From Escherichia phage ST2, in sequence record OM982647: DNA of 64,000 nt; one strand, written 5' to 3'. Positions 6,259 to 39,242 of the stretch are shown here, piece by piece (within the stretch, counting starts at the first letter, position 1; each line of letters begins with the position of its first letter). Below the pieces are notes generated by a model. It searched no databases and was not told where the DNA came from. It saw nothing but the letters and a program-made list of their open reading frames with translations. The translations under genes were made by a program, and so were the position numbers.

Positions 6259-7751
6259 TATAAACCTGTCTGGGACCACGGTCCAAATACGTCTTCAAAT
6301 GAATCCGCTTCTGTTTTATCAAAACGGAACCCTTTAATAATTGGAAGGAAAATACCTACAGTACCTTCACGGCCTTTAGAATGAACCCAACCATTACATT
6401 CACAATCAGCGATACGTCCAATTAATTTACCTTCACGAGCTTCGGTCATTAATCGTTCACGGTCTAAATCATGACGCTCGTCTAAAGGAATAAGAACCTT
6501 TACACCATCAACTGTTTTATGAGTTGTATCTTTAAAACCTGAACCACAATCGGTTGTAATACGACGACAACGTGATACGAGTTCGACACCACCTAATTTG
6601 TTAGGGTCTTTAGAGTGTTCATAGTATCCTACAACTTCTAAAGCGATATCAATAACTTCTTTAAATTTAATTAGATTCTTAGAGCGTTTGTTTTCCCAAT
6701 ATGAATCACGGTTTTTAAGGATAATACCTTCAAGACCTTGGTCAACATATTTTTTATAAACCACTTTAGCTTCGTCAAGATTACGAACTAACTGATTTTC
6801 AATTGGCTCAATTCGCTTAAAGCCTTCAGCCATATTTTCAAGAGCAGCAAAACGAACATCGTATTTCTGACCTTTAATTTTGCCGTCAGAATAGACTTCA
6901 TCTAAAGGAACATAGTCCCAGGCTTGAAGAACCATACCTTCCGCTTCTTTAGGAGAAATAGTCCCTTGAAGAGATTTATTTGCTAAACCGTTTGAAGTGC
7001 TACGGTCTGCAACTTGTACTTCTTCGGATTCTTCATTATCACCAAATAAGAACGACAGGTCATTTCCTGAGCTCACAGCCTTTTTAATATCAAATGAATG
7101 ATAAACTAATTCACCGTCGATTAAAACCCCATTAGGGTGTCTTTCACGAGCTTCTTTAGTCATTTCCATTAGTTCATCTGCTAATAGAGTAAGACCATGG
7201 TATTCATTACCGGCACGAGAAAAGAATTGAACACCATCATCGCGAACTTCAGCGAAACAACGAGCACCATCGGCTTTTAATTGAGCAAATGCAGGCCATT
7301 TAATATTTTTAGTAATCAATTTCTCATCATATGCAGATGCTAACATCTGTGGCTGCAATTGAATAAGACCAGGCCACACCTTATTCGCGATAGACACTGA
7401 AGCACCTACTTCAAGGTCGCGCATCATTACACGACGAAGGACTTCTACATCATCAGGTTTACCATCAGCGATATAACCCATGAGCTCTTTAATTGCAGCA
7501 TTACCAGTGAGTTTACGAGTGGCTAATGTGAACTCAATAAAATCCAACATGTCATCTAATTCAAGAAGACCATACGCTTGAGACCTTTCACCTGGTCCTG
7601 GCCATTTCTTAATATAATACTGGATACCACGTGCATATGTTAAACGATACACACGTTCAAGTAATTTGTTGTCCTTATTTTTCTTAAGGATTTCTTGTTT
7701 TGTTTTAGTAGAACCGATCGCAGCTATTTGGTTTAAAATATCTAAAATCAT
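6258..7751 (-). CDS. 30: ATP-dependent DNA ligase
   Basis: 497 aa; N-terminus MILDILNQIAAIGSTKTKQEILKKNKDN and C-terminus ...FEDVFGPWSQTGL match my recollection of T4 ligase nearly residue for residue. Confidence 0.95.
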   Translation of the reverse strand: MILDILNQIAAIGSTKTKQEILKKNKDNKLLERVYRLTYARGIQYYIKKWPGPGERSQAYGLLELDDMLDFIEFTLATRKLTGNAAIKELMGYIADGKPDDVEVLRRVMMRDLEVGASVSIANKVWPGLIQLQPQMLASAYDEKLITKNIKWPAFAQLKADGARCFAEVRDDGVQFFSRAGNEYHGLTLLADELMEMTKEARERHPNGVLIDGELVYHSFDIKKAVSSGNDLSFLFGDNEESEEVQVADRSTSNGLANKSLQGTISPKEAEGMVLQAWDYVPLDEVYSDGKIKGQKYDVRFAALENMAEGFKRIEPIENQLVRNLDEAKVVYKKYVDQGLEGIILKNRDSYWENKRSKNLIKFKEVIDIALEVVGYYEHSKDPNKLGGVELVSRCRRITTDCGSGFKDTTHKTVDGVKVLIPLDERHDLDRERLMTEAREGKLIGRIADCECNGWVHSKGREGTVGIFLPIIKGFRFDKTEADSFEDVFGPWSQTGL

Positions 7752-8017
7752 TTGATGTCCTCGATTTTGGTTACGGTTCTATTATAAGCCACTTCATCTA
7801 GAAGCGATTTCAGCGTTTTCTGATAAGTGGTAATCCGTTTACCGAGTCCTTCAACGTAGTATTCTGAAATGTAGATGAACCCTTGTTCAACACACTCTTT
7901 AAATATTTCTGCGTCTTTTACTGAACGAAACAATGGCCAGTCTCGAAAGAACATGTTAACGTGACCGTAGTCACGCGTTGTGTTTTTACCATCTGTAATA
8001 TCATGAACTACAAACAT
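7748..8017 (-). CDS. Hypothetical protein (30.1 position)
   Basis: 89-aa ORF, ATGA overlap with ligase start. Confidence 0.45.
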   Translation of the reverse strand: MFVVHDITDGKNTTRDYGHVNMFFRDWPLFRSVKDAEIFKECVEQGFIYISEYYVEGLGKRITTYQKTLKSLLDEVAYNRTVTKIEDIK

Positions 8018-8026
8018 AAGTATCCC

Positions 8027-8851
8027 TTAACAATTTATAGACCAAGTCCATTTAGACGAATCTAAAGGAAAGTTTTGAATCGTCCACCACGGCCGCATAT
8101 CGGTTGGTCCTGGGGTTCGCCAGGTATATGGAGTACGTGTTGTCGAGGGGCCACCAATTTGATTAGGCCATGCACCTGGACTTGTTGCACCAGATTCTTT
8201 AAGCAAATCCGCCAATCGTTTTAAAAGGTCTTCACGATCTGAATCTGAATTATGCTCGGGTGGAACCAAACGAGATTCAATATCATCCCACGTGTGTACA
8301 CGTTGTGCAGTGCGAGGAATATCATCACGTTCACCACGAGCCAACCAATAAATCGGTACATTAAGAATTTCTGCCGCATGGTCACAGTGATGAGCTAAAT
8401 CGTCAACGTAACAAATCACGTTATATTTTGTTTTAGCTAGTTCGAATAATTGTTCCTTTGAAGAATCATGACCACACATCATTACTTCAGAGAAAGCGCC
8501 TGGGAACAAAGCGTTCAAATTAAATTGTCTATTCAATCGAGCATCAATTGAATCACCTAGCGCCGTCACGGCTACAAAATTATAGTCTTCTTTTAGTTTA
8601 TTGATAACTCGAAGAGCATCCGAATAAGGCGCTAAGTAACGAATAAAATCAGAGCGATTATATTTTTCTATTAATTGTTTACCAAGGTTATCGTCGGTAT
8701 TGAACAGTTTACCAGGAGAAATAAATTTTTCGTCCTGAATCATTTTTAAAATATGTTCTAATGGAAGATTATATTTTTGGGCAAAATAAGGAAGCCCAGA
8801 TTGCCAGCTTAAACATACACCATCAATATCAGTCAAAATAGTAGGTTTCAT
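8027..8851 (-). CDS. HAD-superfamily hydrolase-like protein (30.2 position) with W/P-rich C-terminal tail
   Basis: Motif I DIDGV near N-terminus, YVDDL motif; C-terminal 60 aa Trp/Pro/Thr-rich and GC-rich. Confidence 0.5.
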   Translation of the reverse strand: MKPTILTDIDGVCLSWQSGLPYFAQKYNLPLEHILKMIQDEKFISPGKLFNTDDNLGKQLIEKYNRSDFIRYLAPYSDALRVINKLKEDYNFVAVTALGDSIDARLNRQFNLNALFPGAFSEVMMCGHDSSKEQLFELAKTKYNVICYVDDLAHHCDHAAEILNVPIYWLARGERDDIPRTAQRVHTWDDIESRLVPPEHNSDSDREDLLKRLADLLKESGATSPGAWPNQIGGPSTTRTPYTWRTPGPTDMRPWWTIQNFPLDSSKWTWSINC

Positions 8852-9300
8852 AAAGAGTCTCTTAATAGGTTTAACACATCAATAAATTCAACTTCGGTTA
8901 GTATTGTATCATCTTTTGTTAGGTGGCTGGCCATGCTGTGCTTCAAAATTTTTCCTTTAGAGGCTTGTAATGCATCACGAAACCCCTTGTTTTGGATCGC
9001 GGCTTCAAAATATGCATTTGTATATAATTCTTTCCACGCTTCGGAGTATCTTGAAAATGGAACTCCTAACCAGAAGAGAGTCCCACGGTCCTGAGCTCTT
9101 GCATAAGACCTTCCAGCTTGCTGTGCAGCCAATCCAGACAACCTGAATATACGTCTTTGTTGTTCAACATTTTTCACCTTACATCCTTGGAGAAATCCTT
9201 CAAGTCCTCCGAATTGAATACCATCCATGACGAAAGGCCATTGGGCGAAGTTACTTAATGCACATGACGGCCATGGAAAATTGCTTCTGATTTCAATCAT
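8848..9300 (-). CDS. NADAR-domain-like protein (30.3 position), candidate ADP-ribose processing enzyme
   Basis: SNFAQWPF ... GLEGFLQGCK ... WKELYTNAYFEAAIQNKGFRDAL pattern resembles NADAR/YbiA family. Confidence 0.45.
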   Translation of the reverse strand: MIEIRSNFPWPSCALSNFAQWPFVMDGIQFGGLEGFLQGCKVKNVEQQRRIFRLSGLAAQQAGRSYARAQDRGTLFWLGVPFSRYSEAWKELYTNAYFEAAIQNKGFRDALQASKGKILKHSMASHLTKDDTILTEVEFIDVLNLLRDSL

Positions 9301-34478: not shown

Positions 34479-37400
34479 ATGGCTACTTTAAAACAAATAC
34501 AATTTAAAAGAAGCAAAACTGCAGGAGCACGTCCTGCCGCTTCAGTATTAGCCGAAGGTGAATTGGCTATAAACTTAAAAGACCGTGTACTTTTTACTAA
34601 AGATGACCAAGGAAATATTATTGATCTGGGTTTTGCTAAAGGCGGTAGTATTGACGGGAATGTTATTCATACAGGCAATTATAACCAAACTGGCGATTAT
34701 ACTTTAAATGGGGTCTTCACTCAGACTGGTAATTTTAATTTAACCGGTATTGCTCGAGTAACTCGTGATATTATTGCCGCTGGGCAGATTATGACTGAAG
34801 GCGGAGAACTTATTACAAAAAGTTCGGGTACAGCGCATGTTCGTTTTTTCGATGGCAATAGTCGCGAACGTGGAATCATTTATGCCCCGGCTAATGATGG
34901 ATTAACTACACAAGTACTTAATATCAGGGTTCAAGACTACGCCGCTGGTAGCGAAAGCACTTATGCATTTTCAGGCAGTGGCCTATTTACTTCACCTGAA
35001 GTATCAGCATGGAAATCTATGTCAACTCCTCAGATTTTGACTGACAAAGTCATTACAGACGGGAAGAAGACAGGCGATTATGATATCTATTCATTATCAA
35101 ATAACACTCCAATGGCAGAAGGCGAAACGGCTATTAACCACCTCCGTGTTATGCGAAATGCTGTAGGAGCAGGTATTTTCCACGAAGTTAATGTTAATGA
35201 CGGAATAACCTGGTATTCCGGAGATGGACTTGACACTTATCTTTGGTCGTTTAACTGGGCCGGTGGATTGAAAGCCGGTCATTCTATTTCTGTAGGTCTT
35301 CCAGGCGGCCCCAAAGGATATTCTGAATTAGGAACGGCCTCAATTGTTCTTGGGGATAATGATACCGGGCTAAAATGGCATCAGGACGGATATTTCTATA
35401 CAGTAAACAACGGAACAAAAACTTTCATCTATGGTCCAGGAGAAACGCAAAGCCTTAGAAAAATGGTTATGGCTTATTCTCCAGATGGGCTTCTTATGAC
35501 AACGCCGCCGACAGAAAACTATGCTTTGGCTACTGTTGTTACTTACCATGATAATAATGCGTATGGTGACGGTCAAACTCTTTTAGGATATTATCAAGGT
35601 GGTAATTATCATCATTATTTCCGCGGCAAGGGTACCACAAACATTAATACTCATGGCGGTTTGTTAGTTACTCCAGGTAATATTGATGTTATTGGCGGTT
35701 CTGTTAATATAGATGGTAGAAATAATTCTTCTACACTAATGTTTAGAGGCAACACAACAGGATACAGCTCGGTTGATAATATGGATATTAAAGTTTGGGG
35801 TAATACGTTTGTTGATCCAAGCGGAGGTATCCGTAAAAACATTATGGAAATTTCTGATGCAACTAGCTGGATGAGCTATATTCAAAGACTTACTACTGGC
35901 GAAGTAGAAATGAACGTTAATGGTTCATTTGAATCATCTGGTGTTACTGCTGGAGATAGAGGAGTTCACACAACAGGTGAAATTTCATCTGGAGCAGTGA
36001 ATGCTCTTCGTATTTGGAACGCAGATTATGGAGCCATTTTTAGACGTTCAGAAGGAAGTCTTCATATTATTCCAACTGCTTATGGCGAAGGCAAAGATGG
36101 CGATATCGGTCCACTTCGCCCGTTTAGTATGGCTTTAGATACCGGTAAAGTTACTATTCCAGATTTACAATCAAGTTACAATACGTTCGCTGCGAACGGC
36201 TATATTAAATTTGTTGGCCATGGTGCAGGCGCAGGTGGATATGATATTCAATATGCCCAAGCGGCTCCTATTTTCCAAGAAATTGATGATGCTGAGGTAA
36301 GCAAATATTATCCTATTGTTAAGCAGAAATTTTTACAAGGAAAAGCAGTTTGGTCTTTAGGTACTGAAATTAATTCAGGTACATTCGTGATACACCATAT
36401 CAAAGAAGACGGGACTCAAGCTCATACATCAAGATTTAATGCTGACGGTACAGTTAATTTCCCTGATAATGTTCAGGTTGGTGGCGGTGAAGCTACTATT
36501 GCTCGAAATGGTAATATCTTCTCCAACATTTGGAACGTATTTACCTCTGCTGGTGATATAACCAACATTCATGATGCCATTGCCTCCCGTGTGGCTAAAG
36601 AAGGCGACACGATGACAGGTAAGTTGAGTATTAATGCCCCAGACGATGCTTTAGTATTAAATGCTCCTAGTGCAACTAACTCATCTCATATTCGTTCGAC
36701 TGTCGCTGGAGCAAATAGCTGGTTCATAGGTAAAGGTGGAGTGTCAGACACCGTATCTTTTTATAACTATAAGTCCCAGACAGGTATAGATATATCAGCA
36801 GAAGGTAATATTTCATTTAACCCACAATCGGGTAACCTGGTCAGCATGAGCCAGAACCGTATGTATGTTAACGGCGAAAGATGGGTGGCCACAAACCAAG
36901 GTGCAATTAATGTGCAATACGGCGTTGAAGCTCCAGTATTTGTTAACTTAGGCGAGTTAAATGGTAACGTATACTATCCATTGATAAAGGGTCGAAGCTC
37001 TTCCACCGGATATGGTTACCTAAGTAGTGTTGAGCTTGGCCAATTACGTACAGGTGACAATAACTGGGGTATTGGTTGTATAATTGTTCGCTCGGCTGAA
37101 AATACACCAGAACAAGGACATCCGGCAGCAGTATACCAGTTTGACGCTAGAGGTAACTTTAGTGCTCCAGCCGGGGTTTATTCGAACGTTAATATGGGCA
37201 TTGGCACTATTCCTGTATGGGGTGGTCCATCTCTTGCAATCGGCGACAATGATACTGGATTTGTATGGGAAGCAGACGGTATTTTCAACGCATATGCAAA
37301 CGGCCAAGGTGTGTTTAGTTTTAGACCTGGTTTAGCTCAGACATTCGGTAATGTTAACTTCCACTGTAATGCAGGTATGTATGTTCGTGATAACATTGAT

Positions 37401-37742
37401 GTTAACGACGTTTATATTCGTTCTGATATTCGTTGTAAGTCGGAAATTAAGCTTATTAAGAACGCTCAAGAGAAATCTAAACTATTGGGCGGTTATACTT
37501 ATCTGCTTAAAAACTCTGTTACAGACGAAGTTAAACCGTCCGCAGGTTTAATTGCTCAGGAAGTTCAAGAAGTATTACCTGAACTTGTTTCTGAAGATAA
37601 AGAGACCGGACTGCTTCGTTTGAACTATAACGGTATTATTGGTTTAAATACAGCTGCAATAAACGAGCATACAGATGAAATCAAGGAATTGAAATCTGAA
37701 ATTACCGAATTGAAAGCATTAATTAAATCATTGATAAAATAA
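34479..37742 (+). CDS. 37: Long tail fiber distal subunit with C-terminal intramolecular-chaperone-like domain
   Basis: 1087 aa; C-terminal ~105 aa carries SDIRCK and GLIAQEVQEVLPELV motifs typical of auto-cleaving chaperone domains. Confidence 0.8.
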   Translation: MATLKQIQFKRSKTAGARPAASVLAEGELAINLKDRVLFTKDDQGNIIDLGFAKGGSIDGNVIHTGNYNQTGDYTLNGVFTQTGNFNLTGIARVTRDIIAAGQIMTEGGELITKSSGTAHVRFFDGNSRERGIIYAPANDGLTTQVLNIRVQDYAAGSESTYAFSGSGLFTSPEVSAWKSMSTPQILTDKVITDGKKTGDYDIYSLSNNTPMAEGETAINHLRVMRNAVGAGIFHEVNVNDGITWYSGDGLDTYLWSFNWAGGLKAGHSISVGLPGGPKGYSELGTASIVLGDNDTGLKWHQDGYFYTVNNGTKTFIYGPGETQSLRKMVMAYSPDGLLMTTPPTENYALATVVTYHDNNAYGDGQTLLGYYQGGNYHHYFRGKGTTNINTHGGLLVTPGNIDVIGGSVNIDGRNNSSTLMFRGNTTGYSSVDNMDIKVWGNTFVDPSGGIRKNIMEISDATSWMSYIQRLTTGEVEMNVNGSFESSGVTAGDRGVHTTGEISSGAVNALRIWNADYGAIFRRSEGSLHIIPTAYGEGKDGDIGPLRPFSMALDTGKVTIPDLQSSYNTFAANGYIKFVGHGAGAGGYDIQYAQAAPIFQEIDDAEVSKYYPIVKQKFLQGKAVWSLGTEINSGTFVIHHIKEDGTQAHTSRFNADGTVNFPDNVQVGGGEATIARNGNIFSNIWNVFTSAGDITNIHDAIASRVAKEGDTMTGKLSINAPDDALVLNAPSATNSSHIRSTVAGANSWFIGKGGVSDTVSFYNYKSQTGIDISAEGNISFNPQSGNLVSMSQNRMYVNGERWVATNQGAINVQYGVEAPVFVNLGELNGNVYYPLIKGRSSSTGYGYLSSVELGQLRTGDNNWGIGCIIVRSAENTPEQGHPAAVYQFDARGNFSAPAGVYSNVNMGIGTIPVWGGPSLAIGDNDTGFVWEADGIFNAYANGQGVFSFRPGLAQTFGNVNFHCNAGMYVRDNIDVNDVYIRSDIRCKSEIKLIKNAQEKSKLLGGYTYLLKNSVTDEVKPSAGLIAQEVQEVLPELVSEDKETGLLRLNYNGIIGLNTAAINEHTDEIKELKSEITELKALIKSLIK

Positions 37743-37772: not shown

Positions 37773-38552
37773 ATGGCAGTAGTAGGAATCCCTGGTTGGA
37801 TTGGGACCTCAGCCGTTGCTGAAACGGGTCAAAGATGGATGACGGCTGCTTCAAGGGAACTTCGTTTAGGAAACCCTTCATGGATGTCCCAATTCGCGGG
37901 CCGTTCAAGAGAAATAATTCATACACTTGGTGCAGACCATAACTTTAACGGACAATGGTTCCGAGATAGATGTTTTGAGGCAGGTAGTACACCTATAGTG
38001 TTTAATATCACTGGAGATTTAGTATCATATTCTAAAGATGTTCCTTTATTCTTCATGTACGGAGATACACCGAATGAATATGTTCAGTTGAATATACACG
38101 GCGTAACGATGTATGGACGTGGGGGTAATGGCGGTAGCAATAGTCCTGGCTCAGCTGGAGGTCATTGTATTCAAAACGATATTGGTGGGAGACTAAGAAT
38201 TAATAATGGTGGAGCTATTGCAGGCGGCGGTGGCGGCGGTGGCGGCGGTATATATGGCAGACTATCATTTGGTGGTGGCGGTGGTCGTCCATTTGGTGCT
38301 GGTGGGTCTTCCTCTCATATGGGTGCTGGTGCAACCGCTGGCACCATTTCCGCTCCGGGTGCAGGATCTGTCGGTGAGGGGTCTCTTTGGGTATATACAG
38401 GCGGGAATGGCGGCGAAGTTGGCTCTGCAGGAGGAAGATGTAATATTCATGGTAACGGCACAGAATATAACGGCGGCGGTGCTGGTTATGCTGTTATAGG
38501 GTCTGCTCCAACGTGGATAAATGTTGGAGCAATATATGGTCCAAGAGTATAA
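37773..38552 (+). CDS. 38: T2-type receptor-recognising adhesin gp38
   Basis: 259 aa; N-terminus [15 protein letters not shown]...; C-terminal poly-Gly motifs separated by variable segments. Confidence 0.8.
38223..38249 (+). repeat. Perfect (GGCGGCGGT)x3 tandem repeat encoding Gly9 within gene 38
   Basis: 27 bp exact triplication. Confidence 0.8.
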
Positions 38553-38582: not shown

Positions 38583-39242
38583 ATGGCAACACCAAAAGTG
38601 TCATTTTCGCCTAGTGATATTCTATTTGGGTTGCTAGATCGTATTTTCAAAGATAACGCTACTGGAAAGGTTTTAATGTCTCGAGTAGCGGTAATTATTC
38701 TTTTGTTCCTAATGGCACTAATATGGTACAAAGGAAGTATTTTGCTGGATTATTATGTAAGAGCTAAGTATGATACTTATACTGAAATAATCCAAAAAGA
38801 ACGAGCTTTACGTTTTGAATCTGCGGCTCTAGAACAACTGCAAATAGTTCATATCTCATCTGGTGCAGATTTTAGTGCTGTGTATTCTTTCAGACCTAAA
38901 AACTTAAATTATTTCGTCGACCTTATAGCTTATGAAGGCAAACTACCTAGCACAATTTCTGAAAAGTCCCTTGGCGGATTCCCGGTGGATAAAACGGCTA
39001 ATGAATATATAATTCATTTAAGTGGCCGTCATTTCTCATCTAAATCAGAATTTGCATTTTTGCCTACAAAATCTAAGACCGCCGAACTTTCTTATATGTA
39101 TAGTTGCCCATACTTTAATTTGGATAACATCTACGCTGGAACTGTGACGATGTATTGGTATAAGGGGAATAATATACTTGAGGAGGAACGCTTAGCGGCT
39201 ATATGCAACCAAGCGGTCCGAATACTAGGAAGGGCTAAATAA
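38583..39242 (+). CDS. t: Holin
   Basis: 219 aa; MATPKVSFSPSDILFGLLDRIFKDNATGKVLMSRVAVIILLF... as T4 T; single TM then periplasmic domain. Confidence 0.9.
   Translation: MATPKVSFSPSDILFGLLDRIFKDNATGKVLMSRVAVIILLFLMALIWYKGSILLDYYVRAKYDTYTEIIQKERALRFESAALEQLQIVHISSGADFSAVYSFRPKNLNYFVDLIAYEGKLPSTISEKSLGGFPVDKTANEYIIHLSGRHFSSKSEFAFLPTKSKTAELSYMYSCPYFNLDNIYAGTVTMYWYKGNNILEEERLAAICNQAVRILGRAK

Follow-up and report, generated by a model that had tools for sequence, protein, structure and literature searches.

Why an AT-rich phage genome should carry a sharp GC-rich patch at the 3′ end of one gene, and what the tryptophan- and proline-rich peptide encoded there does, is the question raised by this locus in the 64,000-nt stretch of Escherichia phage ST2 DNA analysed here (the window). 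The GC content of the interval 8027–8210 was 46.2%, compared with 38.0% for the window as a whole; within the patch, the highest value over 184 nt was 47.8%, a level equalled by ~1% of 184-nt windows. At its peak the patch reached 58% against 38% (z ~4), a value attained by 0.19% of 100-nt windows, which bears out an earlier note describing it as more GC-rich than its surroundings. The patch is one of ~16 local peaks of at least 0.48 GC in the 64 kb. It is a real but fairly ordinary finding. It lies in a gene 30.2 homologue, with the following neighbours.

8848–9300, minus strand: gene 30.3 (Phage_30_3; Pfam PF08010, E = 9e-69)
8027–8851, minus strand: gene 30.2 homologue, 274 codons plus a TAA stop at 8027–8029 (ORF list)
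8080–8179, no strand: GC peak of the patch, 58% GC (sliding-window statistics)
7748–8017, minus strand: gene 30.1 (DUF3045; Pfam PF11243, E = 1e-26)

The sliding-window and codon-usage check proposed in the earlier note confirmed the peak and also accounted for it. When the GC content of the tail was predicted from its amino acids and from codon usage across the genome, the observed values at codon positions 1, 2 and 3 (0.385/0.712/0.346) matched the expected ones (0.385/0.712/0.358), as did total GC (0.481 observed, 0.485 expected), which leaves no foreign-DNA signature. The excess was located at codon position 2 (0.71–0.83), with GC3 at 0.35–0.40, near the expected 0.35–0.36; GC3 was also low (0.25–0.37) in the tails at every other locus examined. 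Relative to the ORFs of the window, residues 223–274 were enriched in Trp (11.5% vs 1.4%), Pro (15.4% vs 3.6%) and Thr (17.3% vs 6.1%), and the long open frames of the window held no other 35-aa stretch with at least four Trp and four Pro. The patch arises because such a peptide needs Pro (CCN), Trp (TGG), Thr (ACN), Gly (GGN) and Arg (CGN) codons in an AT-rich genome; it is ordinary coding sequence, its high GC a passive by-product of peptide composition.

The label 30.2 given to the gene in the earlier note is correct, as the protein matched PHROG 420 (E = 2e-78 over residues 1–259) and the gene occupied the conserved position, in the order 30.3 / 30.2 / 30.1 / ligase as in RB32. Gene 30.3 lies upstream and overlaps the 30.2 start by 4 nt, and 30.1 starts 9 nt downstream of the 30.2 stop, an order unchanged in every relative examined; 30.2 was also found between 30.3 and 30.1/DNA ligase in RB14, slur02, Mosigvirus records and metagenomic relatives. 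Mosigvirus DNA 97% identical to the window gene is annotated as 30.2 or HAD-like, and the genome carrying it is a Mosigvirus (RB69-like). By core sequence (70–74% identity to Tequatrovirus 30.2) and by position, the gene is the orthologue of T4 gene 30.2, whose product (P32275) is listed as an 'uncharacterized 32.4 kDa protein'. In the supplement to a time-resolved omics study (PMC9697503), T4 30.2 is classed as 'early RNA, middle protein', together with ligase and 30.1. Literature searches by the name gp30.2 and for HAD with T4 returned no papers and nothing on gene 30.2, respectively. This is a conserved and so far unstudied early/middle gene of T-even phages, of which a clearer picture can now be drawn.

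The bulk of the protein is formed by one folded domain.

8267–8851, minus strand: HAD-superfamily phosphatase core with a helical C1-type cap, residues 1–195 (AlphaFold2, Foldseek, conserved residues)

AlphaFold2 modelled residues 1–195 with pLDDT values of 83–98 and a helical insertion at residues 16–86. HAD motif I was present (T7-D8-I-D10-G-V), D8, D10, K132, D150 and D151 were invariant in 78 homologues and T96 nearly so, and our own reading of the alignment and model suggests that T96, K132 and D150/D151 represent motifs II, III and IV, respectively. A Foldseek search retrieved 122 PDB chains at E ≤ 1e-3, the best 50 of 122 all being HAD-fold enzymes; the matches belonged to HAD subfamily I and included cytosolic 5′(3′)-deoxyribonucleotidase, with E-values of 1e-7 to 1e-8 against 2jao, 2i7d and 3bwv. 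The HAD phosphatase-like core proposed in the earlier note is thereby upheld by fold, with a sub-threshold match to Pfam HAD_2 (15.4 bits, gathering score 23.8). No curated HAD sequence model reached its cut-off with the 30.2 homologue, NCBIfam TIGR01428 scoring 12.7 against a cut-off of 125.4, and PF00702 was matched at E < 0.01 by just 9 of the 78 homologues.

The model resembles the cdN/mdN enzymes (Pfam NT5C) in its Rossmann-like core, helical C1 cap and catalytic DxD, T, K and DD residues, and the 30.2 protein may accordingly in fold terms work like a 5′(3′)-deoxyribonucleotidase. By contrast, cdN/mdN-type HAD enzymes lack the Trp/Pro tail and show marginal sequence similarity to the 30.2 protein: the best deoxyribonucleotidase match in a PDB profile search was 2jao at E = 0.4, and PF06941 (NT5C) was matched weakly by 4 of the 78 family members (best E = 0.003). 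The sequence test for membership in the NT5C/cdN-mdN family was thus negative, although the fold is similar. The 30.2 protein is a divergent HAD branch recognisable through fold and motifs, a HAD phosphatase that is probably active, and its core is strongly constrained (dN/dS 0.016–0.034).

Beyond the core, the 274-aa ORF ended exactly in the W/P/T/G-rich, low-complexity peptide quoted in the earlier note, with SPGAWPNQIGGPSTTRTPYTWRTPGPTDMRPWWTIQNFPLDSSKWTWSINC at its C-terminus, and could be divided as follows.

8186–8266, minus strand: acidic linker and amphipathic helix, residues 196–222 (AlphaFold2; also in the T4-type and most tailed homologues)
8195–8245, minus strand: the helix itself, residues 203–219, REDLLKRLADLLKES (AlphaFold2)
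8030–8185, minus strand: Trp/Pro/Thr/Gly-rich disordered tail, residues 223–274, source of the GC patch (AlphaFold2, composition, dN/dS)
8135–8143, minus strand: 9-nt in-frame indel encoding T237-T238-R239, missing from RB69-type alleles (Mosigvirus allele alignment)
8105–8122, minus strand: W244-R-T-P-G-P, the most conserved tail motif (tail alignment)
8030–8092, minus strand: distal 21 codons, P254–C274, PWWTIQNFPLDSSKWTWSINC, swapped in the HX01/AV114 allele

Residues 201–220 had block-mean pLDDT values of ~74–85, and an equivalent helix was found in the T4-type homologue and most tailed homologues; residues 223–274 were modelled at pLDDT 40–52 with no secondary structure. The model of the T4-type homologue gave the same picture, so that T4 30.2 shares the architecture of a core, a helix and a disordered aromatic tail anchored on W-R-T-P-G. 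In an alignment of 18 diverse tails, the Trp of W-R-T-P-G-P was the sole invariant column. Of 54 long tails, 11 contained the pattern W-x(1,2)-P-G, compared with 1.5 predicted by composition shuffles; this count is not a probability, the sequences being related, and the excess of motifs over shuffles is not independent evidence, given how short the motifs are and that the sequences are linked by phylogeny. Tryptic peptides of the tail include TPYTWR, TPGPTDMR, PWWTIQNFPLDSSK and WTWSINC.

The tail was found at the same locus in all ~149 Mosigvirus records, including RB69 30.2. Its DNA and peptide matched 149–151 phage records, at one place per record, from Escherichia and Shigella (Mosigvirus-type) phages save for two weak matches to Enterobacter phages, and among the matches listed every annotated one fell in a 30.2 or HAD-like gene. 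Alignable tails were present in T4-like, Gaprivervirus, Klebsiella-phage and Enterobacter-phage homologues, sharing the helix, the invariant Trp in W-x-x-P-G and a (R/K)PW(W/Y) motif. Because an IMG/VR scan gave just 10 loci, GenBank phage records were used for this comparison. Among 99 homologue clusters, 59 had tails of at least 45 aa, and many family members consist of the ~200-aa core alone. In a neighbour-joining tree of the core, the enterobacterial T-even clade was tailed, and the tail-less members were outgroups plus a few nested losses. Relatives with 73–78% identical cores stopped at 199–202 aa and directly abutted 30.1, with no separate tail ORF; since such close relatives lack it, the tail must be dispensable for the fold, and its clean loss in several lineages indicates that it is not essential.

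The tail is nonetheless taken to be translated and is under purifying selection in the 30.2 frame, with dN/dS values of 0.158 in Mosigvirus, 0.165 in Tequatrovirus and 0.043 in Gaprivervirus, 5–10 times the core value in two of the three genera, yet indels, swapped segments and, now and then, clean loss remodel it quickly. All tail indels seen were multiples of three. The 174-nt and 165-nt tail alleles were each represented by dozens of records, the window allele differing from RB69-type alleles such as AV118 by the inserted TTR. In the HX01/AV114 allele, confined to 7 Mosigvirus records, the last ~20 residues were unrelated in sequence and again W/Y/P/G-rich. Unlike the window tail, the T4-type tail is Y/N/H/F-rich and for this reason not GC-rich (GC 0.36), and it contains a G-G-I-E-Y-L-Y-N-R-P-T motif that the window tail lacks. 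A second motif, G-T-G-I-E-Y-L-x-N/R-Q-P-T, is widely kept in other genera; given its absence from the window tail, the tail of Mosigvirus could have partly degenerated.

These comparisons show the tail to be an old accessory of the 30.2 family in enterobacterial T-even phages. The suggestion of an added module therefore holds in the evolutionary sense, many members being core-only, and fails as to recency. The earlier note had set homologues with the same tail and a similar composition as evidence against a new acquisition; presence and motifs were indeed shared, and composition was shared in part, the T4-type tail being Y/N/H-rich rather than GC-rich.

To explain these features, we propose that the C-terminal extension, predicted to run from an acidic linker through an amphipathic helix into ~50 disordered residues, would play no part in catalysis and would serve the phosphatase as a flexible arm for docking or tethering. 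Its short aromatic motifs, W-x-x-P-G and (R/K)-P-W-W/Y, would bind a partner, a phage or host protein, and this binding would place or regulate the phosphatase in early-to-middle infection. The full account, in which a passive GC patch, an old disordered tail and a docking arm are combined, is the best explanation overall, and on balance we lean towards it. We are highly confident of its descriptive part, that a disordered, selected and old tail causes the GC patch, and advance the docking role itself tentatively. Natural tail-less and swapped-tail alleles offer an experimental handle on the partner and role of the enzyme.

A works-like analogy, with no sequence relationship, is provided by the E. 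coli SSB linker/tip and the C-termini of T4 gp32 and T7 gp2.5, which the 30.2 tail resembles as a P/G/Q/W-rich disordered segment on a folded domain, with a fast-changing sequence, a kept composition and short motifs. The tails of SSB, gp32 and gp2.5 terminate in acidic tips whose partners are known, whereas the motifs of the 30.2 tail are aromatic and proline-based.

Trp-rich peptides that act at membrane interfaces are an established class, exemplified by the HIV gp41 MPER and by indolicidin and tritrpticin, and the distal tail might likewise partition to the inner-membrane interface, so that the phosphatase would meet a substrate or complex associated with the membrane. Like these peptides, its last ~20 residues are dense in Trp, contain Pro and score favourably for interfacial partitioning: the Wimley-White interfacial energy minimum of the protein fell in the distal stretch (−4.95 kcal/mol over the last 19 aa, WWTIQNFPLDSSKWTWSIN), among the lowest 0.36% of 19-aa windows in the ORFs of the window, and the T4-type tail scored −4.4. 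However, there is no homology to these peptides, and the score was not conserved among homologous 30.2 tails, those of Klebsiella, Enterobacter and other phages scoring −1 to +1. An equally favourable segment occurred in 16% of the ORFs of the window, AlphaFold2 predicted neither an amphipathic nor a transmembrane helix in the distal part, and exactly the favourable segment is swapped in the HX01/AV114 allele. We thus regard a membrane anchor as unlikely.

Rather than binding a partner, the tail might fold onto the cap or active site for autoinhibition or gating, or promote oligomerisation or condensates through aromatic 'stickers'. The spacing of aromatics by P/G/T/N/Q in all tail types, the survival of this composition through a sequence swap, and the amphipathic helix ahead of the tail in most homologues are all consistent with such contacts. 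AlphaFold2 runs with 68–78 homologues, however, placed the tail of neither the Mosigvirus nor the T4 protein confidently against its core (pLDDT < 55), and this possibility likewise appears unlikely, if anything a little more so.

There is a smaller chance that the fast-diversifying tail forms an arms-race interface, either recruiting the 30.2 phosphatase to a target, of host or phage origin, that varies, or being recognised by a host sensor. The target could lie in a nucleotide-based defence or repair pathway, with 30.2 acting together with 30.3 and 30.1; if true, either version would account for the swapped alleles, the indels that keep the frame, the recurrent losses and the tail types particular to each genus.

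The same clean losses in close relatives, the fast turnover of tail length and sequence, and a tail dN/dS above that of the core would also be expected of a functionless or nearly neutral extension, a drifting relic without which the enzyme works. Against this, dN/dS of 0.04–0.17 is far under 1 in three genera, the frame has stayed open over 50–90 codons in dozens of lineages with in-frame indels only, and the invariant Trp and recurrent motifs persist across genera, making a relic improbable.

A further possibility is that the patch hides an RNA or DNA element or a cryptic gene overlapping 30.2, given that alternative frames of 42–52 aa were open on both strands and a TATAAAT late-promoter-like string lay at the extreme 3′ end.

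8075–8224, plus strand: antisense open frame, 49 aa, TTG start, a compositional by-product and not a gene
8062–8190, minus strand: same-strand +1-frame open run, 42 aa, GTG start, a compositional by-product

The antisense frame, in phase with the 30.2 codons, is open because the sense strand lacks TTA, CTA and TCA codons; its peptide differed between near-identical phages, as did alternative-frame peptides generally, and it showed no excess of synonymous changes. In Gaprivervirus tails, the 30.2 frame had 76 synonymous and 22 non-synonymous codon changes, compared with 4/89 and 9/78 when the two remaining sense frames were scored. A high synonymous score was also obtained for one out-of-phase antisense frame, which we attribute to shared degenerate positions. 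A dual-coding gene was rejected, there being no purifying selection in the other sense frames and no conservation of the in-phase antisense peptide in close relatives. The cryptic second reading frame suggested in the earlier note thus finds no support: among the sense and in-phase antisense frames, substitutions were mainly synonymous only in that of 30.2, and the alternative peptides were unstable. Nor did a nucleic-acid element emerge from an Rfam scan of 7700–8500 (E up to 1), Tandem Repeats Finder on 7900–8400 (no repeats), RNA folding of the patch (z = −0.32) or a scan for sigma-70 promoters and terminators, which placed no site within the tail and gave counts at shuffle level. The TATAAAT string, in the S-I-N-C codons (8033–8041), was discarded as a late promoter, since it differs from the canonical TATAAATA and is not conserved, the NHEP29 and Ec2 alleles having TGTAAAT instead. 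Both the cryptic gene and the element are very improbable.

Equally improbable is a recently acquired foreign module from a GC-richer source or a fusion with another gene, to which the local GC peak and the many tail-less family members might point, as GC3 and total GC are those that the amino acids predict, homologous tails occur in other genera and at the same locus throughout Mosigvirus, tail-less relatives have no separate tail ORF, and the tail was found nowhere else in phage genomes or among 1.8 billion representative proteins, leaving no other protein family or locus as a fusion source. In the latter search, a tail-only profile, short and weak, retrieved two proteins only, a fragment of 30.2 and a spurious one of low complexity, and an NCBIfam search with the tail gave no match; its absence from other proteins is suggestive of a tail limited to this gene. 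A horizontally acquired island was likewise rejected at a tail GC3 of 0.346 (0.358 expected) with no atypical codon usage. A false lead is thereby removed, as neither foreign DNA nor a hidden gene need lie behind a sharp peak of GC in an AT-rich phage genome.

The strongest GC peak of the window (38084–38551, 62%) lay inside a glycine-run region of a 259-aa ORF (37773–38552) just downstream of a long tail-fibre-like ORF. ARAGORN found no tRNA in the 36.5–39.5 kb region around it. From its position, the ORF would encode a gp38-type adhesin, and this peak, judged by eye from the translation, also appears to be driven by amino-acid composition.

The phage belongs to the RB69 group of T-even phages (Mosigvirus), and the 1.6 kb around the GC-rich patch is 97% identical to phi25-307, PhAPEC2, APCEc01 and ~130 other Escherichia/Shigella phages. 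The features of the locus are:

8027..8851, minus: 30.2, 274 aa, matching PHROG 420 (E=2e-78); the GC-rich patch is its 3′ end
8848-9300, minus: 30.3, upstream of 30.2, Pfam Phage_30_3 (PF08010), E=9e-69
downstream of 30.2: 30.1, DUF3045, E=1e-26
downstream of 30.2, alongside 30.1: DNA ligase
8062..8190, minus: alternative open frame in the patch, same strand as 30.2
8075..8224, plus: alternative open frame in the patch, antisense

The order 30.3, 30.2, 30.1 and DNA ligase is that annotated in RB32 and RB14, and at the sequence level ORF 8027..8851 is the 30.2 orthologue. The earlier note had taken the gene for a HAD-like 30.2, which the PHROG match, the gene order and a Foldseek placement in HAD subfamily I corroborate, and the W/P-rich peptide it quoted is the exact product of this ORF. 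30.3 overlaps the start of 30.2 by 4 nt, suggesting translational coupling and possibly a common pathway. For this region, GenBank record 348Ecol098PP lists a 'ybiA-like protein' beside a 'HAD-like protein'; the two are presumably 30.3 and 30.2. Literature searches on the gene found no published function for 30.2.

The patch codes for the tail (residues 223-274), a disordered C-terminal extension rich in aromatic residues and proline, and we hold this descriptive account with high confidence. As the earlier note remarked, the 3′ end is more GC-rich than its surroundings: sliding-window GC is 46.2% over 8027-8210 against a window mean of 38.0%, peaking at 58% over the 100 nt of 8080-8179 (z ~4; equally high in 0.19% of 100-nt windows). 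The tail contains 11.5% W, 15.4% P and 17.3% T, against averages of 1.4%, 3.6% and 6.1% for the ORFs of the window, and no second comparable W/P-rich stretch was found among the other long open frames of the 64 kb. Split by codon position, tail GC1/2/3 was 0.385/0.712/0.346 (0.49/0.83/0.40 in the hottest 35 codons), while the encoded residues, given the codon usage of the window itself, predict 0.385/0.712/0.358, with a total of 0.485 expected and 0.481 observed. The excess therefore lies wholly in the second codon position, where the amino acids dictate high GC (Pro CCN, Thr ACN, Trp TGG, Gly GGN, Arg CGN, Ser TCN/AGY), so that the GC content of the patch follows from its amino acids. Tail synonymous sites resemble the rest of the phage and thus carry no compositional sign of foreign origin, and searches of the patch for DNA- or RNA-level elements turned up none. 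The GC peak is lineage-specific, with tails of 46-53% GC in Mosigvirus and Gaprivervirus and 36-39% in T4-type phages, which use Tyr/Asn/His/Phe where the former use Trp/Pro/Thr.

The strongest GC peak of the window (38084-38551, 62%) is the glycine-run part of a 259-aa ORF (37773-38552, plus) and contains no tRNA gene; it offers an informal parallel to the patch, judged by reading the translation. This ORF has a 1087-aa tail-fibre-like ORF (34479-37742) before it and a 219-aa ORF (38583-39242) after it; by position and composition only, the three are taken to be a gp38-type adhesin, gp37 and a holin, respectively.

The tail is under selection in the 30.2 frame. Substitutions were counted by frame at 7 Mosigvirus, 7 Tequatrovirus and 4 Gaprivervirus 30.2 loci; in Gaprivervirus tails, synonymous/non-synonymous codon differences were 76/22 in the 30.2 frame and 4/89 and 9/78 in the two remaining sense frames. 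A high score (60/27) was also seen for one out-of-phase antisense frame, and this we attribute to shared degenerate positions, not a second gene. Tail dN/dS (Nei-Gojobori, residue 223 to the end) was 0.158 in Mosigvirus (computed without the AV114 allele), 0.165 in Tequatrovirus and 0.043 in Gaprivervirus, with core values (residues 1-195) of 0.034, 0.016 and 0.030, and all tail length differences seen were multiples of three. Both alternative frames are open because the sense strand is poor in A/T-rich codons; the in-phase antisense frame stops only opposite TTA, CTA or TCA, of which codons 211-274 hold one (TTA, codon 263). Peptides from the alternative frames vary between phages near-identical in DNA. 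In a time-resolved omics study, the supplement (PMC9697503) classes T4 30.2, like ligase and 30.1, as 'early RNA, middle protein'; the protein is therefore made, a class that says nothing specific on tail peptides. Within the terminal S-I-N-C codons, shortly before 30.1, TATAAATTG at 8033-8041 (minus) resembles the T4 late-promoter consensus TATAAATA; the likeness is probably fortuitous, since the NHEP29 and Ec2 alleles have TGTAAAT there.

Tail DNA matched 149 records by blastn and the tail peptide 151 by tblastn, all from Escherichia/Shigella (Mosigvirus-type) phages bar two weak Enterobacter-phage peptide matches, at a single place per record and, in the listed annotated ones, always in the 30.2/HAD-like gene. 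Run against 1.8 billion representative proteins, an HMM of the tail alone returned just a single 30.2 fragment and a spurious repetitive protein. DNA ligase residues ~49-53 (7593-7607, minus) read K-K-W-P-G-P-G, superficially like W-R-T-P-G-P; among long ORFs close to the patch this was the one other instance of W-x(1,2)-P-G, most likely a coincidence.

The tail is an old and quickly remodelled feature of the 30.2 family alone, and the fold does not depend on it. Across 98 homologue clusters plus the query, the sequence after the core spans at least 45 aa in 59 and fewer than 30 aa in 36. In a neighbour-joining tree of cores, the outgroups (Acinetobacter, Serratia, Pectobacterium and other phages) are tail-less and the enterobacterial T-even clade is tailed, bar a few nested tail-less lineages. 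Three metagenomic relatives (L020, L021 and L022) have cores 73-78% identical to the window's and a 30.2 ending at 199-202 aa, with 30.1 beginning at its stop or within 2 nt and no tail ORF left over. In L021 and L022, 30.3 is missing as well, so 30.2 and 30.3 need not occur as a pair. Tails fall into several types: W-x-x-P-G plus G-(T)-G-I-E-Y-L-x-(N/R)-Q-P-T in T4-like, Gaprivervirus and many Klebsiella and Enterobacter phages; W-R-T-P-G-P plus P-W-W, but not the second motif, in Mosigvirus including the window; and endings in L-R-A-Y-Y or L-L-N-x-x-A-N-D in other lineages. When aligned, 18 diverse tails have in common an amphipathic helix, (F/N)-W-P, a Trp that never varies (W244 here) with P-G after it, and (R/K)-P-W-(W/Y). 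Tail motifs are far commoner than in composition-preserving shuffles (W-x(1,2)-P-G in 11 of 54 tails, 1.5 expected), an excess that is not a probability because the sequences are related.

Within Mosigvirus the tail has three alleles: the window's own 174-nt form, a 165-nt form without T237-T238-R239 found in RB69 itself, and the HX01/AV114 form (7 records), whose final ~20 residues are swapped for an unrelated, again W/Y/P/G-rich sequence. The swap breakpoints lie right after the W-R-T-P-G-P-T-D-M motif and in the 30.1 ribosome-binding region. This alternative 3′ end (…QPHWRYTNVGEHPVPPYWAVPQGYGTTKG) occurs at 2255-2345 of the Escherichia phage AV114 locus (L012) and in six further Mosigvirus records, and no donor was found elsewhere in the phage collection.

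An AlphaFold2 model of 30.2 with 78 homologues as input predicted a confident core (residues 1-195, pLDDT 83-98), a helix at residues 203-219 (block-mean pLDDT ~74-85 across 201-220) and unstructured residues 223-274 (pLDDT 40-52); the T4-type protein gave a like picture, its disorder extending over the G-G-I-E-Y-L motif. In Foldseek the core grouped with helically capped enzymes of HAD subfamily I, resembling mouse and human cytosolic 5′(3′)-deoxyribonucleotidase and a staphylococcal deoxyribonucleotidase-like protein (E ~1e-7 to 1e-8), with phage proteins labelled 5′-nucleotidase among the BFVD matches. The catalytic residues D8, D10, T96, K132, D150 and D151 are invariant or nearly so, yet no curated sequence model reaches its cut-off and a PDB profile search retrieved cdN at E=0.4 only. 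We therefore file 30.2 as a predicted divergent HAD phosphatase, deoxyribonucleotidase-like in fold, rather than as an established member of NT5C.

Kept composition with changing sequence, a few invariant aromatics in a proline-rich context and a helix linking them to a folded enzyme are what would be expected of a flexible docking arm. We tentatively prefer a mechanism in which the tail, as a flexible arm with short docking motifs, would tether or target the phosphatase to a partner in early-to-middle infection, and give it somewhat less than an even chance; that the tail is an arms-race docking interface seems improbable. It might instead anchor the enzyme at a membrane interface, the last 19 residues scoring −4.95 kcal/mol on the Wimley-White scale, but this favourable score is not conserved. 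An intramolecular or self-association role sits poorly with the lack of confident tail docking in the AlphaFold2 models of the window's and T4-type proteins, and a near-neutral relic with the dN/dS values and frame conservation. The recently acquired module, gene fusion or cryptic second frame of the earlier note are contradicted by tail GC3 and the tails of homologues in related phages, by tail matches confined to the 30.2 gene, and by the substitution counts and unstable alternative peptides. The earlier note had named such a tail, of similar composition, in related phages as refuting evidence, and homologues there do carry one, though T4-type tails are not GC-rich. What the patch encodes is an ordinary disordered tail, not described before, in a phage gene family that is known but uncharacterised, and more exciting interpretations of the patch are unsupported.

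Two further homologues bear mention. In the metagenomic protein P0016 (302 aa), a tail-less 30.2 core is fused in frame with a 30.1/DUF3045 homologue (PF11243), which could hint, Rosetta-stone fashion, at cooperation between 30.2 and 30.1 or, coming from a single 1.4-kb contig, could be an assembly or stop-codon artefact. In Erwinia phage Cronus and relatives (P0031-P0056), tails end in ...LLNKVTANDSD, ...KAANDDSNSL and similar, resembling the portion of the ssrA degradation tag (AANDENYALAA) that binds SspB, an apparent likeness that could point to regulated proteolysis of the enzyme in those phages.
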